The notes: generated by a model not told the origin, from the sequence alone. A stretch of 53,876 nt of DNA from a bacterium (GCA_021790255.1 JAJYIE010000004.1:1-53876); one strand, 5' to 3'. Positions 1-6,155 are shown, counted from the stretch's first letter. Numbers and translations are program-made.

Positions 1-77
1 TAAAATCACTTGGCAATTTTCTGCGTTTGTCTCAAATGTGTTTGATCTTTTTCATCAATAGCTACTTATTGTTCAGT

Positions 78-142
78 AATTTGTATAAATGTCATTCTTT
101 TTTCAGCTATGATCATATTGGTGCACCCATAACTAAGTTATG
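78..142 (+). promoter_or_regulatory. Unit-1 promoter/operator: AATTTGTATAAAT (78-90), -10 TATGAT (108-113), palindrome CATAACT-A-AGTTATG (128-142) overlapping the ATG
   Basis: The same three elements recur at 3500-3567, with identical spacing between the 13-mer and the -10. Confidence 0.65.
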
Positions 143-436
143 AAAACAATGCAAGCAAGACTTGAAAAAATAGAAGCTCAGTATAAACAACAAACATATA
201 CCAACGTTGATAGTGCAATGGTTCGGGTATTACGCATGATTATTGACGCATATAGTCAAAAGACATATATACCAAAAGAAGTAGATAAAATAACGCATGA
301 AGAATGGCAACTTGATTGTGAAAAGGAATTACGTTACCAACGCATACATTTTGGAGAACAAGCGGTTGAAGACAGGAAACAAATAAATGATGACTTTGAA
401 GCATATATTACAGAGGTTGGCGGATGGAAGGACTAA
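140..436 (+). CDS. Small hypothetical protein, 'WKD' family (paralog 1)
   Basis: 98-aa ORF with an N-terminal RLEKIE coil, a DKITHEEW motif shared with 3565..3825, and C-terminal GWKD. Confidence 0.75.
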   Translation: MKTMQARLEKIEAQYKQQTYTNVDSAMVRVLRMIIDAYSQKTYIPKEVDKITHEEWQLDCEKELRYQRIHFGEQAVEDRKQINDDFEAYITEVGGWKD

Positions 437-439
437 AGT

Positions 440-760
440 ATGACTATACAAACCAAACTTACAAAACTTGAGATGCAATTACAAGCAAAGTTTTCAGTAG
501 AAAGACCGAGTGAGCAACCAGTTATTCGGCTCTGGTCAGAGCTTATACGAGATGAGGTGCAAGAAGGATTTGGTATAAAAGCAGAGCCAATGCTTGTAGT
601 GCCTGATAATCTAAAAGTTAGGCATGTTGATTGGGAGTACTTTTATAACTCAATTCAGAAACGTAGAGTTGAATTTGGCGAAAAAATCTATAAAGAACAA
701 ATTGACTTTTGTAATGAAATAAAAACAGTGATTGATAGTGCTGAGGGATGGAAGGACTAA
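440..760 (+). CDS. Small hypothetical protein, 'WKD' family (paralog 2)
   Basis: 106-aa ORF starting MTIQTKLTKLE and ending EGWKD, 3 nt after paralog 1. Confidence 0.75.
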   Translation: MTIQTKLTKLEMQLQAKFSVERPSEQPVIRLWSELIRDEVQEGFGIKAEPMLVVPDNLKVRHVDWEYFYNSIQKRRVEFGEKIYKEQIDFCNEIKTVIDSAEGWKD

Positions 761-765
761 TAATC

Positions 766-1353
766 ATGCGGTGTATATTTATCAAGAGAAACAAAGAACA
801 ATGTAGGGCACATAAGATGCTTGACTCCACTTTCTGTTTTAGACACAATCCCAAGCACGTTAAAAAGGTAAAAGAGCTGTTACTCAATGAGACCGATATA
901 CAAGTAAAAGATACATTCAGAGCAGACCTCAAAAAAGACCAAGCAAGTACGATTACAATTAGTGGAGACTTAGACAAGCTCAAAGTGGAGAAAGAAAAGC
1001 ACAGCAAAGCAATTATGAGCTATGAACAATTCCTTGAACTATTTAACGACTTGCCTGATATTATAAGCAAAACGAAGTCTTTGAAAGAGAAAGATTATTT
1101 ACTTGGAAAAACCTACTTGAACTGCGTTGTAAAAGATAAGAAAGTCTTGTCCTGTCAATTAAATCCACCATTCAATAAGTTTGTGAAAAGTGGTGTTTTG
1201 ACATCTAGTCGGATTGCAGAAACCACACTTGAACTATATGATTTTATCATAAACAACTTAGACACGGTAGACAAATTTAACGAGGACGTCAGTTTATATT
1301 TACAGGGTAAAAAGTCTTTTCAGCAGTCACAGTACATGAACGTCATGCTATAA
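766..1353 (+). CDS. Chimeric ORF: Cys/His small-protein N-terminus fused in frame to the serine recombinase C-terminal region
   Basis: The N-terminus MRCIFIKRNKEQCRAH...CFRHNP matches 3832..4188. From LLLNETDIQVK to GVLTSSR it matches the recombinase C-terminus, followed by a 46-aa tail. Confidence 0.7.
   Translation: MRCIFIKRNKEQCRAHKMLDSTFCFRHNPKHVKKVKELLLNETDIQVKDTFRADLKKDQASTITISGDLDKLKVEKEKHSKAIMSYEQFLELFNDLPDIISKTKSLKEKDYLLGKTYLNCVVKDKKVLSCQLNPPFNKFVKSGVLTSSRIAETTLELYDFIINNLDTVDKFNEDVSLYLQGKKSFQQSQYMNVML
883..1212 (+). repeat. Direct repeat copy 1 (recombinase 3' end), ending in core TCTAGTCGG (attP-like junction)
   Basis: Hand alignment with 5531..5859 gives 39 differences in 330 nt (about 88% identity), mostly synonymous. 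Confidence 0.95.
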
Positions 1354-1360
1354 TAAAAAT

Positions 1361-1615
1361 ATGAGCGATAGAACTTTAATTCAAAAATTGAAGGCAGCCA
1401 TTGACTCGGAGAAAAATAGCAGTATCAAAAAGGATAATTTGACAGATGTGGCAAGTCAAATTAGCAATCAACCAAGCACCTCGCAGCCACAGAGCAGTAA
1501 TGCCAGCGATAACAGCAATAATCAACCTCAAAATCTTGGAAATAATCAAGTTGTTGGCGCAGATGGCACAGTTATTGACCTCAACATAGACCAACAAAAC
1601 ACCATTAAAAAGTAA
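1361..1615 (+). CDS. Hypothetical protein with Q/N/S-rich low-complexity linker
   Basis: 84-aa ORF 7 nt after the upstream stop; no recognisable motif. Confidence 0.55.
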   Translation: MSDRTLIQKLKAAIDSEKNSSIKKDNLTDVASQISNQPSTSQPQSSNASDNSNNQPQNLGNNQVVGADGTVIDLNIDQQNTIKK

Positions 1616-1650
1616 TACTTCATCAAGCTGTATTTTATTGAACTATATAG

Positions 1651-3474
1651 TTATTGATATCCTTGTGCTTGGGTGTGAAACATGTGAGCGTATTTGCCGG
1701 CTTTTTTCATTAGTTCTTCATGCGTACCCCTTTCAATAATTTGCCCATCATCAATTACAAAAATCTTATTGGCATTTCTAACGGTTGAAAATCGGTGAGA
1801 GACCAGAACTAATGTTTTGTCTTTGTACGCTTTTTCTAAATTATTAAATATTTCATACTCTGCTTCTGCATCAATGGCGCTTGTTGGCTCATCAAGAATA
1901 AGCAAAGGGGATGATTGATAAAAGGCTCTTGCAATTGCTAATTTTTGCCATTGACCAACAGATAATTCCTCACCATCCTCATATTCCCTGCCCAATATCT
2001 GGTCAAATTTTTTTGGTAGTTTTTCAATAAACTCATATGCACCTGCTTTTTTAGCTGCCTCTTTTATAAGCATTTCATCTTGTTTCGCTGGGTCACCAAG
2101 TACTATATTATCTCGGACAGTCAAGTAATAATGTACAAAATCTTGAAATAATGTACCCATATGCTCGTACCAGTTTGCAAGTTTTATCTCTTTTATATTT
2201 ATGTCATTTATCAGAATTTCGCCCTCAGTTACATCATAAAATCTACAAATGAGTTTAATTATTGTTGATTTACCTGCACCATTTACACCAACAAGAGCAG
2301 CGCTCTCGCCAGATTGCACAATGAAAGATACATTTTTTAATACTTTTTGACCATTTGGGTATTGAAAAGACACATTCTTAAATTCTATTTTTGGTGGATA
2401 AATCTTTTCAAAAATAACGGGATGCGCAGTCTCATTGATTAGTCTTGGTAGTTCTAAAACCTCAAAGTAATGGTCTATGTACAAGTTATGCTCATACATT
2501 TCACCAAAATTAGCAACAGCATTTGCAGCGCTTCCATCTAGTTGGTCAATCATATTGATTAGCAATGTAAAACTACCAATAGTGATTATTCCATTTAAAA
2601 CGTGGGGTAATTGTAGATATGCAATCACAAACAACACAATTGTTTCTAGGATTGGAGGGTACATTAGTTGGCGTAAATAATTATCTAATGGTTTCTTGTT
2701 AAGATTGAATAAATAATCTTGTACTTCTTTGAGCTTAGCAAGAAGCGTTTTTTGTGATTGAAAAATTCTCATTTCTCTTATCGCCTCAGGACTAGCAAGT
2801 AAATAGGTAAGATACCAAATTTTTCTCACCTGCGGTGCGCCCGACCCATAAATTGACCATTGAATTGTGCCATATTTTGCACGCAGGTATAGTCTTGGCA
2901 AGGTTACAATAGTAATTGTTACTGGTATCCACCATCCAAATGGAAGTAATATTATAAAAGCTGCAATATAACCAACAATACTACTGAAAAAGTAAGCAAA
3001 CTGACGTAAAAAATCAGGTGGTCGCCATGTTAGAGTATCACGAGTTTTTGATATAAGATTTTGTGTTTTTGGGTTTTCTAAGTGGGCAATATCTAATTGC
3101 GATAATTTATCATAAAAACGTCTATTTAATTCATTTTGAATTGTGTAACGAAAAAGATAGTCAAAATAAACAATATGAAGCCCCCACTGGACAATGCTTT
3201 CAGCAAGATTGAGTACATAGCGAGTAGCAAGGATAGCAATAACTACCAGAGGTACAGTAACAATACCAGAAGCCAAATGATTACCAAGTAAACTATCAAT
3301 GAGGTATTTCAGTGTTAAACTTGCAATCAAGGGCGCTAAAGCGCCTATCATTGCAGTAAAATAATAACCAAAGGTTACTCTTTTATCCATTTCCCACGAC
3401 AACAAGAGCATTTTTCTTAGATTGGTTAAAACATGTTTCAGTTGTTGCAATGAAGTTTGTACTTTCATACACAC
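1651..3474 (-). CDS. ABC exporter, fused permease/ATP-binding (MsbA/MdlB-like)
   Basis: N-terminal TM helices; Walker A GVNGAGKST; signature LSVGQWQK; Walker B LILDEP; H-loop SHR. Confidence 0.92.
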   Translation of the reverse strand: MCMKVQTSLQQLKHVLTNLRKMLLLSWEMDKRVTFGYYFTAMIGALAPLIASLTLKYLIDSLLGNHLASGIVTVPLVVIAILATRYVLNLAESIVQWGLHIVYFDYLFRYTIQNELNRRFYDKLSQLDIAHLENPKTQNLISKTRDTLTWRPPDFLRQFAYFFSSIVGYIAAFIILLPFGWWIPVTITIVTLPRLYLRAKYGTIQWSIYGSGAPQVRKIWYLTYLLASPEAIREMRIFQSQKTLLAKLKEVQDYLFNLNKKPLDNYLRQLMYPPILETIVLFVIAYLQLPHVLNGIITIGSFTLLINMIDQLDGSAANAVANFGEMYEHNLYIDHYFEVLELPRLINETAHPVIFEKIYPPKIEFKNVSFQYPNGQKVLKNVSFIVQSGESAALVGVNGAGKSTIIKLICRFYDVTEGEILINDINIKEIKLANWYEHMGTLFQDFVHYYLTVRDNIVLGDPAKQDEMLIKEAAKKAGAYEFIEKLPKKFDQILGREYEDGEELSVGQWQKLAIARAFYQSSPLLILDEPTSAIDAEAEYEIFNNLEKAYKDKTLVLVSHRFSTVRNANKIFVIDDGQIIERGTHEELMKKAGKYAHMFHTQAQGYQ

Positions 3475-3499
3475 AATTGTATCAGATTTTATTTGTCTA

Positions 3500-3567
3500 A
3501 ATTTGTATAAATAATCTCTTTTTGACCCCTATAATTAAATAGGGATACCCCCCATAACTAAGTTATG
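3500..3567 (+). promoter_or_regulatory. Unit-2 promoter/operator: AATTTGTATAAAT (3500-3512), -10 TATAAT (3530-3535), palindrome CATAACT-A-AGTTATG (3553-3567)
   Basis: The 13-mer and the 15-bp palindrome are exact repeats of those at 78-142. Confidence 0.65.
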
Positions 3568-3825
3568 ACATTGCAAAATAAAATCACAAACCTAGAAAAA
3601 TATGTTAGAGCAAGAACACCTCAGCCGAGGGATATTCTTACAAGAGTAACTCGCATTGTAATTGCTGTAGGCGAGTCACACAGTCCCGGCAGAACTCTTG
3701 AGCCGATAGACGAGATTGACAAAATTACCCACGCAGAGTGGTATGAGTTCACGAATAAACATCCAGACTGGAAAGACCCTTATTACATAACAGAATTTGA
3801 CGAAGCCTTGGCATGGAAAGACTAA
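3565..3825 (+). CDS. Small hypothetical protein, 'WKD' family (paralog 3)
   Basis: 86 aa; MTLQNKITNLEK..., DKITHAEW, ends AWKD. Confidence 0.75.
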   Translation: MTLQNKITNLEKYVRARTPQPRDILTRVTRIVIAVGESHSPGRTLEPIDEIDKITHAEWYEFTNKHPDWKDPYYITEFDEALAWKD

Positions 3826-3831
3826 TAAAGT

Positions 3832-4188
3832 ATGCAATGTAAATTTATAAGAAAAAACAAACAGCAATGCAAGGCGCATAGCATGAGAAGTACTAAACTT
3901 TGCTTCAGGCACAGCCCTGACCACGCTAAACAAGCCTTAAAAGCCTCGCAAGCCGGCGGGACAAACAGAAGCCCGTCTGTTGCCTTTCAAGAAGAAATTA
4001 CTCTCAATAATACAAGAGATATCCAAAAACTGATAGGTAAGGTCATCAATGGTGTTTGGCAAGGAAAAGTACCAATCAAAGTTGGCTCAACCGTTGGTTT
4101 TCTTACTCGTTGCTGGCTTGATGCCTATGAGAAATCAGAGCTTGAAAGACGAGTTGAAGAACTTGAGAAGAAAATAACAGCATTGTAA
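3832..4188 (+). CDS. Small protein with C-x9-C-x10-C-x2-H putative Zn motif and C-terminal coiled coil
   Basis: 118 aa; the Cys/His pattern is conserved in the 766 copy; ends ELERRVEELEKK. Confidence 0.7.
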   Translation: MQCKFIRKNKQQCKAHSMRSTKLCFRHSPDHAKQALKASQAGGTNRSPSVAFQEEITLNNTRDIQKLIGKVINGVWQGKVPIKVGSTVGFLTRCWLDAYEKSELERRVEELEKKITAL

Positions 4189-4228
4189 TTATACTGCCTT
4201 GAGCTTTCTTAACCTGTATAATCAAAGC

Positions 4229-5874
4229 ATGCAATATACAACACAAGATTTAGTTGGCTTCCTCAAAACTCTTAACACTGCGGATGATGAAAAAGATAAT
4301 GCAACAAGTATCAAATACGTGATTTATGCCAGAAAATCCACAGAAAGTGAAGAACGACAGGTACGTTCACTTGGCGACCAAGTAACAGAGTGCAGAAAAA
4401 TAGTACAAGACAGAGAGCTACAGGTAATTTCAACCCCTATTACTGAGTCAGAAAGTGCGAAAGAGCCAGATATTAGACCAAGATTTAGGCAGATGATTGA
4501 CGACATAAAAGGTGGCAAATACGGTGGCATTATTGCGTGGCACCCGGACAGACTTGCACGCAATATGAAAGATGCAGGTGAAATTATTGACCTCTTGGAT
4601 AAAAAAATTATCAAAGACTTACAGTTTGTGAGCTTCACTTTCCAAAACAATACCGCAGGCAAAATGCTTTTAGGAATAGCATTTGTTTTGTCAAAACAGT
4701 ATTCAGACCAGCTAAGCGATAATGTGCTTCGTGGTAATAGGAGAAGCATTGAGGAAGGAAAATATATCAATAAAACTAAGCACGGTTATTTCAAAGACGT
4801 AAACCAATACTTACGACCAGACGGAGATAATTTCTTACTCATAAAACAGGCATGGAAAATGAGACTTGAGAATAAACAGCTTGAGGAAATTGCATCGTTT
4901 CTCAATACCAATCACTACAGCAGACCGACAAGCGTTGGTGGTAACACCCACGAGCAATACACCATAGACGTGAAGCGTGTATCAGAGATTTTACGTGACT
5001 CTATTTACTGTGGTGTCTTGTTATTTGGGGAAAAGGAGAAAAAGATAGTTGATTTGACACAGATATATGATTTTATACCAATGGTTACAGTTGATGAGTT
5101 TCTCAAAATAAATAAAATCACCAGCATTGATAAGTTTTTCAAACAGCGTTTCAAAGTGGAAAAAGAGGGAAGCATAAGAGCTGATTTATTGCGGGGCAAA
5201 GTCATTTGTGGCTATTGTAACCACCCAATGGTATCTGCAATCTCAAACAAAATGAATAAAAAAGGACTAACACACTATTACAACTATCGCTGTGATAATA
5301 AAAGCTGTAAAGCAAAGGCAAAGGCAATAAGAGCGCATGTTGTAGTGGATTACTGTATTGATTTTCTGCGACAACACAAATTTAACACGAGGGATGTCTA
5401 CGACCATTATGTAGCAGAAATGAAACGTGTTATTGCAAACCAAGAGCAAATACTTGAGACACAACGGCATACACTCACAAAAGCAAAAATTGATACTGAA
5501 GACAAAGTAGATAAAATAAAAGACTTGCTGCTCAATGAGACAGATATACAAGTAAAGACACATTCAGAGCAGACCTCAAAAAAGACCAAGCAAGCATTGT
5601 TACAATCAGTGAGGACTTGGACAAGCTAAAAGAAGAAAAAGAAAAGCACAAAAAGGCAATCTTGAGCTACGAGCAATTCCTTGAACTGTTTAACGATTTG
5701 CCCGATATAATAAGCAAAACCAAGAGTTTAAAAGAAAAAGATTATTTACTTGGAAAAATATACTTGAACTGCGTTATAAAAGATAAGAAAGTATTGTCCT
5801 GTCAATTAAATCCACCATTCAACAAGTTTGTGAAACATGGTGTTTTGACGTCTAGTCGGGGTGGGGAGAATTGA
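4229..5874 (+). CDS. Large serine recombinase (resolvase + recombinase + Zn-ribbon + coiled coil), with a 1-nt frameshift at about 5554-5556
   Basis: YARKST catalytic motif, AWHPDRLARN, CGYC...YRCDNKSC. Restoring one A (as in copy 906-909) joins ORFs 4199..5629 and 5617..5874 into about 548 aa. Confidence 0.9.
5531..5859 (+). repeat. Direct repeat copy 2, ending in core TCTAGTCGG at the tRNA 3' end (att junction)
   Basis: See copy 1; the last 4 nt overlap the tRNA discriminator and acceptor stem. Confidence 0.95.
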
Positions 5875-5927
5875 ACTCCCTACATCCGGACCCCCAGCCC
5901 GGCGTTCTGCCGATGAACTACACCCCG
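5856..5927 (-). tRNA. tRNA-Pro(GGG), CCA not encoded
   Basis: Cloverleaf: acceptor CGGGGTG/CACCCCG, D-stem GTTC/GAAC, anticodon stem CCGGG/TCCGG with loop CTGGGGG, T-arm GGGAG-TTCAATT-CTCCC. Confidence 0.95.
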
Positions 5928-5999
5928 AAGTTCGGACTATTTCTGAACATATCTTCTACCAGCTATCAGGTACAAGAATAATTGCACTTTAACATTTTA

Positions 6000-6155
6000 T
6001 CAAAAAACGAACATCTTATTAAATAAGCGTGTTAAATAAAACTCCGGATCCTTTTCTACCACCGAAACCTGCAGCTTTGTCCCGGCCAGATTTTTTGCCG
6101 CTTCCAGCCCGGCAATGCTGGCGCCGACAATAAGGACATCATAGAAACATTTCAT
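6000..6155 (-). pseudogene. N-terminal fragment of an FAD-dependent oxidoreductase (51 aa)
   Basis: Hand translation MKCFYDVLIVGASIAGLEAAKNLAGTKLQVSVVEK... is a Rossmann beta-alpha-beta unit. It has an AGAGGAGG SD and stops after 51 aa. Confidence 0.7.

Follow-up and report, generated by a model that had tools for sequence, protein, structure and literature searches.

A 195-aa open reading frame (ORF) in a 53,876-nt stretch of bacterial DNA (GCA_021790255.1, JAJYIE010000004.1:1-53876; hereafter the window) begins as a small Cys/His gene and continues in the same frame into the end of a large serine recombinase (LSR). Is this chimera a working component of a recombinase-less satellite or a relic of the way in which the locus was built, and to which element does each of its parts belong? 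An earlier note, made from the DNA alone, had proposed the first of these readings.

A low-GC island beside tRNA-Pro

The ORF lies within a low-GC island of 5.86 kb (window 1-5859; 33-40% GC vs 42-50% in the host), located at the end of a 53,976-nt MEGAHIT contig (k=141 graph) from a mine-drainage metagenome. The enolase of the host is nearest to proteins of Daviesbacteria, Microgenomates and other Patescibacteria. The island, which adjoins a tRNA-Pro(GGG) gene, is made up of two related gene sets, unit 1 and unit 2:

98-139, + strand: leader or promoter region of unit 1, TTGTATAAAT ... CCCATAACTAAGTT-ATG; conserved, and also present in unit 2 at ~3503-3567
140-436, + strand: WKD-type small gene 1a of unit 1, 98 aa, ending ...GGWKD (ORF list, gene call)
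440-760, + strand: WKD-type small gene 1b of unit 1, 106 aa, upstream of the fused ORF
766-1353, + strand: fused ORF, 195 aa, a three-part chimera (ORF list, gene call, homology)
1361-1615, + strand: orf84, a small low-complexity gene that also follows ext (the third part of the fused ORF) in L007, L010, L011, L013 and L017
1651-3474, - strand: ABC transporter, cargo of element 2, with low GC like the island
3565-3825, + strand: WKD-type gene of element 2, 86 aa
3832-4188, + strand: intact Cys/His gene of element 2, 118 aa
4199-5629, + strand: LSR of element 2, ended early by a 1-nt deletion (Pfam Resolvase, Recombinase and Zn_ribbon_recom)
5557-5853, + strand: out-of-frame rest of the element-2 LSR tail (P arm)
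5854-5859, + strand: crossover core AGTCGG, copy 2, attR, overlapping the tRNA-Pro 3' end
5855-5927, - strand: tRNA-Pro(GGG), the integration target and B' arm (ARAGORN; Rfam 58 bits)

The leftmost positions of the window (1-43) have a depth of ~105x in run X1 vs ~9-11x elsewhere in the window, and at least three contigs of this run part ways at window 54-56 (L001, 86-139). Because this repeat is common to many genomes or copies, the contig ends there and the left boundary of unit 1 is hidden. A joint in run X1 from 54 to 5986 was considered as an empty site and rejected, as it has a side of 21 nt only and its contig diverges again at 6006; we take it to come from a different genome that shares the 105x repeat. 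No host synteny was found among the fetched loci.

Homology of a relative in run X5 to unit 1 begins at 98, that is, at the leader, where a scan for consensus promoters gave a score not above chance. WKD gene 1a has no Pfam match; WKD gene 1b has 82% DNA identity to the WKD gene of two related loci, L059 and L077, with a dN/dS of 0.14. All of the small genes upstream of Cys/His end in GWKD or AWKD followed by a stop (425-436, 749-760 and 3814-3825). This end is encoded by GGATGGAAGGACTAA, which stands 5-10 nt ahead of the following start codon and resembles a ribosome-binding site for it; translational coupling may thus be what the conserved peptide end reflects. The pair of WKD and Cys/His genes was also found in other CPR (Candidate Phyla Radiation) mobile elements (L066-L068, 2600-11800; L063, 1400-11000), one carrier being a ~9-kb element that encodes an LSR and a Prim-Pol primase and interrupts a Mg-chelatase/ComM-like gene, and another a locus with two LSRs. 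Near one of the loci of the LSR family described below, in a Berkelbacteria MAG, ARAGORN called a tRNA with the anticodon TTA, which reads the UAA stop (L037, 12750-12825).

An in-frame deletion between two short repeats

Gene callers place the start of the fused ORF at 766; an upstream ATG at 748 would give 201 aa. Its parts, and the two joints between them, are as follows:

766-867, + strand: part A, the first 34 codons of a Cys/His gene, with the knuckle CX9CX2H...CX2H
859-868, + strand: deletion junction TTAAAAAGG, with AAAGG microhomology; homology blocks meet at 860-868
868-1206, + strand: part B, the last ~113-114 LSR codons, comprising the distal coiled-coil helix and terminal beta-strands; P arm of the old element
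1207-1212, + strand: crossover core AGTCGG, copy 1, identical to 5854-5859; tail homology ends here
1213-1353, + strand: part C, 'ext', 47 codons, P' arm of element 2, with homologues at the left ends of single elements

Part A (residues 1-34, MRCIFIKRNKEQCRAHKMLDSTFCFRHNPKHVKK) is 53% identical to the N terminus of the unit-2 Cys/His gene at 3832-4188 (tblastn E 4e-10) and is closer to the Cys/His gene of L059 than to this unit-2 copy. It keeps the C-X9-C-X2-H ... C-X2-H motif of the family, with C3, C13, C24, F25 and H27 conserved in the alignment, and the conserved central and C-terminal domain (GG.NR ... VINGVW.G.VP..VG..GFLTRCWLDAYE, plus a terminal coiled coil) has been deleted. Residues 35-147, from KELLLNETDIQVK onward, match the end of an LSR. 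In DNA, this part B is 88% identical to 5517-5853 and 92.6% identical to the intact LSR of L059; in amino acids, it is 91% identical to the unit-2 tail. Only the portion of the LSR distal to DKIKDLLL is kept.

L059 is a JGI contig carrying an intact relative of unit 1, an element that was seen again as L074, L075 and L076, and is laid out as a WKD gene, a 127-aa Cys/His gene, a 565-570-aa LSR and tRNA-Pro(TGG). Its positions 1-355 align to window 513-868 (82%, blastn) and 1940-2292 to window 860-1212 (92.6%), the two blocks overlapping by 9 nt. The loss is therefore 1,593 nt between two 5-nt AAAGG repeats, and because this amounts to 531 whole codons, the deletion is in frame. Homology blocks to the intact loci L059, L074, L075 and L077 meet at 860-868, the homology to L077 being lost at the same point. 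The deletion took the rest of the Cys/His gene together with the Resolvase, Recombinase and Zn-ribbon domains of the LSR, leaving the junction peptide HVKKVKELLLNETDIQVK. Consistent with this, the ORF at 748-1353 has no match in Pfam, with PF00239, PF07508 and PF13408 all absent from the fusion; the unit-2 LSR carries PF07508 at residues 214-307 and PF13408 at residues 330-389.

The junction is supported by a Logan contig of the same run, which covers 27-942 with zero differences, and an identical 195-aa protein is encoded on two contigs. A relative in run X3 (soil) matches unit 1 only from 863 on, following an LSR body. The homology blocks and the second assembly of the same run thus bear out the in-frame fusion of a Cys/His gene to an LSR tail that the earlier note had described. 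Its estimate that about 1.6 kb with the catalytic, recombinase and Zn-ribbon domains had gone agrees with the 1,593 nt missing relative to L059, and the comparison with L059, L074, L075 and L077 upholds its view of unit 1 as a deletion derivative without a recombinase.

The end of the ORF lies in a second element

Homology between the unit-1 and unit-2 tails, and between unit 1 and L059, stops at the AGTCGG core. For two contigs (record 5 of run X1 and record 17 of run X5), the match to the window begins at 1207 and extends to the right only, and run X4 contains ~90% relatives of 1224-1545 and 3580-5702 and nothing of 1-1070, so that ext co-occurs in this run with element 2 and not with unit 1. 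The segment from 1207 to 5859 consists of core, ext, orf84, ABC transporter, WKD gene, Cys/His gene, LSR and core, and it reads as a complete second element between the unit-1 tail and tRNA-Pro. The cargo gene at 1651-3474 (- strand) encodes a complete MsbA-like ABC exporter inside this 4.65-kb element.

These boundaries divide two of the earlier claims. What had been taken as a recombinase tail is one in the codons up to the core, and the final 47 (1213-1353) come from the left arm of the neighbour. Likewise, the att site that unit 1 was said to keep includes the recombinase-side arm and the crossover core, and is not an attL or attR of its own: on the right, the P arm and core of unit 1 are joined to the P' arm of the neighbour. 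On the left, unit 1 runs off the contig. Judged from these arms, the retained site is a hybrid P-core-P' (attP-type) junction with its right half owned by element 2. Dyad symmetry at 1207-1212 was tried as evidence for an LSR site; the best centre fell on the core (13/24), and as 37% of shuffles were as good, we did not use it.

The tandem layout depends on the contig from the k=141 MEGAHIT graph, and the same reads might be arranged differently, with the unit-1 remnant directly at tRNA-Pro and 1213-5853 as a free 4.65-kb circle in attP form, mis-threaded via the tail repeat. The Logan k=31 contigs (27-942, 918-2576, 2555-5589 and 5565-...) break at a 35-nt exact tail repeat (913-947), the k=31 graph fits both layouts, and depths are all ~9-11x. 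The k=141 graph contig, however, spans the 35-nt repeat; 948-1212 is 92.8% identical to L059, vs 86.8% for the unit-2 tail, an affinity to L059 seen also in the left part of unit 1; two contigs encode the three-part protein; and a tandem arrangement is seen independently in locus L044 (below). We therefore consider a free circle improbable and retain the tandem layout.

An LSR family with a reading frame across attP

A scan of GTDB genomes gave 54 loci of this LSR family, mostly labelled Patescibacteria, with some binned MAGs under other taxon labels. In almost all 54 GTDB loci the LSR gene runs up against a convergent tRNA gene, 3' end to 3' end, the targets comprising at least 12 tRNAs (Pro, Leu, Val, Ala, Asp, Gly, Gln, Glu, His, Met, Lys and Arg). 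Homologues of ext and orf84 were located at the opposite (left) end of the element, 1.7-9 kb upstream and on the same strand, for example in the single elements L007, L010 and L013. A profile of four ext peptides recovered the ext segment in 17 GTDB loci, each of which has a core of 2-8 nt common to its left and right junctions (attL and attR).

We then read the frame obtained by joining the recombinase-side arm to the left arm at the anchored core. The tail passes through the core and on into ext without a change of frame, meeting a stop after 44-53 codons, in 16 of the 17 single-element GTDB loci (L007, L008, L010, L011, L013-L015, L017-L020, L022, L024, L026, L027 and L050), the exception being L049, which has an LSR fragment only. 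The same tail-core-ext frame occurs in the tandem locus L044 and in the window. Ext peptides have the motif ..ELF/Y..I....L/E....WN..V..FL.QE....L.V.L before the stop, and their dN/dS of 0.07-0.27 indicates purifying selection.

Read from these arms, the LSR gene of the circular form crosses attP and has ext as its normal C terminus, and integration swaps the ~45-aa ext for a few tRNA-encoded codons (...SSRGGEN-stop, ...SSRGERT-stop or ...AGRGPGN-stop); in the window, the stretches concerned are 1207-1353 and 5854-5874. Since the LSR gene normally spans its own att site in this way, the last third of the fused ORF belongs to the neighbouring element. A search of IMG/VR for free or phage forms returned no close relatives, only LSRs at 28-43% identity, and a search of the LSR against PDB chains gave matches to the catalytic domain only, so that the coiled coil was not mapped to solved structures.

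Two intact LSRs of the family stand in tandem in L044 (1679-3667 and 7788-9602), a Patescibacteria-type contig. The upstream LSR, of 662 aa, reads ...LIGR-EKNAPAEP... through a TGGTCG core (P-core-P', attP-type), and TGGTCG recurs at the downstream LSR, which ends ...SGRG-stop at a partial tRNA-Pro.

The left (P') arm also resembles the target. TTGAAC or TCGAAC lies in it at a distance from the core equal to that of the T-loop sequence of the tRNA in the B' arm (in the window, 1213-1245 vs 5860-5885), and this hexamer encodes the conserved 'EL' of ext. A P' arm that mimics the tRNA T-loop may explain how one LSR family targets more than ten tRNA species. We suggest, tentatively and with some doubt, that the C-terminal exchange could be a built-in switch of LSR activity, stability or directionality, with T-loop mimicry by the P' arm and with the upstream copy of a tandem held in attP form. 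If so, the fused ORF would be the only intact carrier of the ext C terminus in the locus.

A frameshifted neighbour and a decaying lineage

The element-2 LSR has a 1-nt deletion in the A-run at 5554-5556 (A4 at 906-909 in unit 1) and stops at 5629. The truncation falls inside the coiled-coil region, and the rest of the tail is open in another frame (5617-5874). The 1-nt loss is present in the Logan contigs, and the ~90% relative in run X4 has the extra base. Because the element-2 LSR is frameshifted, the trans mobilisation by the neighbouring recombinase that had been proposed for unit 1 is unlikely in this genome; and as this is the only full-length LSR nearby, unit 1 is presumably immobile here.

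Decay is also seen in the closest relatives. The three nearest foreign relatives of the tail are all decayed LSRs beside tRNA-Pro or a remnant of it: one is cut by insertion of an rve-type transposase (L003, 1-110), one is without a Zn ribbon and frameshifted (L004, 350-420 and ~800-815), and one is without a catalytic domain (L002, 1-335).

The earlier note's picture of a recombinase-less unit beside a related recombinase-bearing element corresponds to the known situation of a cis-mobilizable element (CIME) in an accretion tandem (PMC5704250). Unit 1 has lost the integration genes of an integrative element, as a CIME has; a working recombinase supplied by the neighbour is precluded here by the premature stop at 5629. 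On this comparison unit 1 is probably the older copy of a tandem accretion array, now decayed and similar to a CIME.

Assessment of a function for the chimera

Recombination directionality factors (RDFs) bind the LSR coiled coil and switch attL x attR recombination on, and they share no sequence signature. Unit 1 could be pictured as a functional satellite mobilised in trans, whose chimera acts as a dominant-negative or directionality factor via the LSR coiled coil. The fused ORF is intact and in frame, with its upstream genes preserved; retained in it are the distal helix of the coiled coil, the terminal strands and a full C terminus of the attP form, ext included; and neighbour-mobilised CIMEs are documented (PMC5704250). 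However, the LSR next to it carries a frameshift, the contig shows no left att site, and an in-frame outcome has a 1-in-3 prior for a deletion and is automatic at the att junction. The product itself also speaks against this role. The conserved Cys/His domain is gone, as is the proximal half of the LSR coiled-coil region, leaving roughly the distal half. An AF2 model of the fusion has a mean pLDDT of 61 and a pTM of 0.31; pLDDT reaches ~96 at residues 1-30 only, and the model is unstructured past residue 30.

The fusion is, moreover, unique in all collections searched. The fused ORF is the sole such fusion among the matches in a collection of 5.8 billion proteins, and no counterpart was found in JGI contigs, so the search for the same junction elsewhere that the earlier note had called for yielded no second case in either. 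Among the 35 listed matches of the Cys/His family, which include the window's own, the 34 others are all 101-127 aa. With a unique fusion, a 34-residue knuckle, the distal half of a coiled coil and a fold of low confidence, we found no support for the dominant-negative or directionality-factor role and regard the functional satellite as quite unlikely.

Selection on the fused tail (part B) gives the same dN/dS, 0.09-0.11 (0.11 vs L059), as among intact relatives, with one unit-1-specific replacement seen (I to T in GKIYLNC). As this value equals that of intact genes, it reflects the history before the deletion and is silent on selection after the fusion. No sequence from the first 20 kb of the window, with its host genes, was present in three metatranscriptomes of the same study, indicating that the organism is absent from them. 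We infer that the product, composed of a Zn knuckle, half a coiled coil, terminal strands and ext, is a by-product without a selected function. The fused ORF can be viewed as an ordinary decay product of tandem accretion, and its annotation as a new regulator would call for expression data.

Proposed history of the locus

Collectively, these results suggest that the fused ORF is probably a relic chimera at the joint of two tandem LSR elements of ~4-5 kb in a Patescibacteria (CPR) host. An L059-like element with WKD genes, a Cys/His gene and an LSR would have integrated at tRNA-Pro(GGG), with its LSR 3' end abutting the tRNA. A related element (1207-5859) would then have entered the same site, through site-specific recombination or else through homologous recombination of the two tails (88% identical), and have displaced the earlier copy outward in the manner of the accretion model. 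A microhomology deletion of 1,593 nt, at some stage and by chance in frame, would have taken out the greater part of the Cys/His gene along with ~440 codons from the start of the old LSR. Because the old P arm and the P' arm of the newcomer together form an attP-form LSR 3' end, the fused ORF reads 47 codons into the neighbour.

Recombination of attP with attR is not a usual LSR reaction, and the entry of a second copy is therefore unexplained by standard LSR rules. The route by which it came to lie next to the resident copy is one that we infer, and homologous recombination of the tails would give the same product. Against a relic stand the intact ORF, the preserved upstream operon and ribosome-binding context, and a tail that shows no excess of replacement changes (dN/dS 0.11 vs L059), so that the ORF might have functioned recently or still do so. 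For it stand the recurrence of the tandem layout (L044) and the frequency of decay (L002, L003, L004 and the unit-2 LSR).

It could also be supposed that unit 1 and element 2 were acquired together as a composite and still move via their outer att sites, with the junction and the fused ORF as passengers. Transfer of a whole CIME-ICE tandem is documented (PMC5704250), and GC is uniformly low across 1-5859. Set against this, there is no functional LSR in the visible part, the outer left att is not seen, and the units differ by ~12-21% in DNA and have different relatives (L059 vs the X4 lineage), a divergence that fits separate arrivals. We regard joint acquisition as very improbable and favour the stepwise formation of a relic by accretion and deletion.

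Comparison with known systems

In accretion, an element integrates and decays to a CIME, and a second element inserts at the att site beside the target gene (PMC5704250); it has likewise been reported for tycheposons (bioRxiv 10.1101/2020.12.28.424599) and, with serine recombinases, for the ssrA islands of Dehalococcoides (PMC3146451). As a decayed unit within such a tandem, unit 1 is of a known kind. The CIMEs and tandem ICEs-IMEs of Streptococcus thermophilus (ICESt1/ICESt3; PMC5704250) share with the window the loss of integration genes, the retention of att, a second insertion and an internal att. Classic CIMEs differ in having tyrosine integrases and a tRNA 3' end that is regenerated as a direct repeat, whereas the window locus has an LSR, a 2-8-nt core, an attP-type internal junction inside coding sequence and a broken helper recombinase, with the left att of its decayed unit outside the visible sequence.

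The Dehalococcoides ssrA islands (PMC3146451) likewise have serine recombinases at the 3' part of a tRNA-like gene (T-loop region) and form tandem arrays in which some units are without an integration module and have been proposed to be CIMEs. Unlike the locus described here, they use a CcrB-like and a second small recombinase and a 20-bp direct repeat, and their integrase sits at attL and reads away from the site, with no ORF across att. Prochlorococcus tycheposons are similar in being small cargo elements at tRNA genes, in which newcomers shift earlier copies into the island and fragmented integrases and partial tRNAs are left behind; they differ in their mostly tyrosine recombinases and other host phylum and in having no integrase ORF across att.

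For an att site within a coding sequence, there are two known parallels. In mycobacteriophage BPs (PMC4557955), attP lies in a coding sequence and the prophage protein is C-terminally shortened, with different properties. The gene there is a repressor and the lost tail an ssrA-like degradation tag, whereas here the gene is a recombinase. The 'suicidal' tyrosine integrases of archaeal SSV type (PMC8371274) have att inside their own ORF, such that integration splits the gene and excision restores it. These enzymes are tyrosine recombinases reported only from archaea, in which the split separates the catalytic domain and inactivates the enzyme; in the LSR family, only the ~45-aa C-terminal extension is exchanged, the domains are Pfam Resolvase, Recombinase and Zn_ribbon_recom, and the family occurs in Patescibacteria MAGs. 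A review of archaeal tyrosine recombinases describes recombinases that interrupt the gene encoding them as exclusive to archaea (PMC8371274).

Our literature search found no paper combining large serine recombinases with the Candidate Phyla Radiation and no description of a family-wide split-ORF attP in LSRs. The frame across attP at tRNA 3' ends is a family-wide property of these CPR serine recombinases. The analysis also supplies precise boundaries for small integrative elements in CPR genomes, in which mobile elements are poorly charted, and the short tRNA-end sites of the family would be of interest as integration tools. Should the C-terminal exchange control directionality or stability, it would represent a new, RDF-independent regulation of a large serine integrase. 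By analogy, the putative switch may be a bacterial serine-recombinase counterpart of the 'suicidal' integrases and of integration-dependent immunity.
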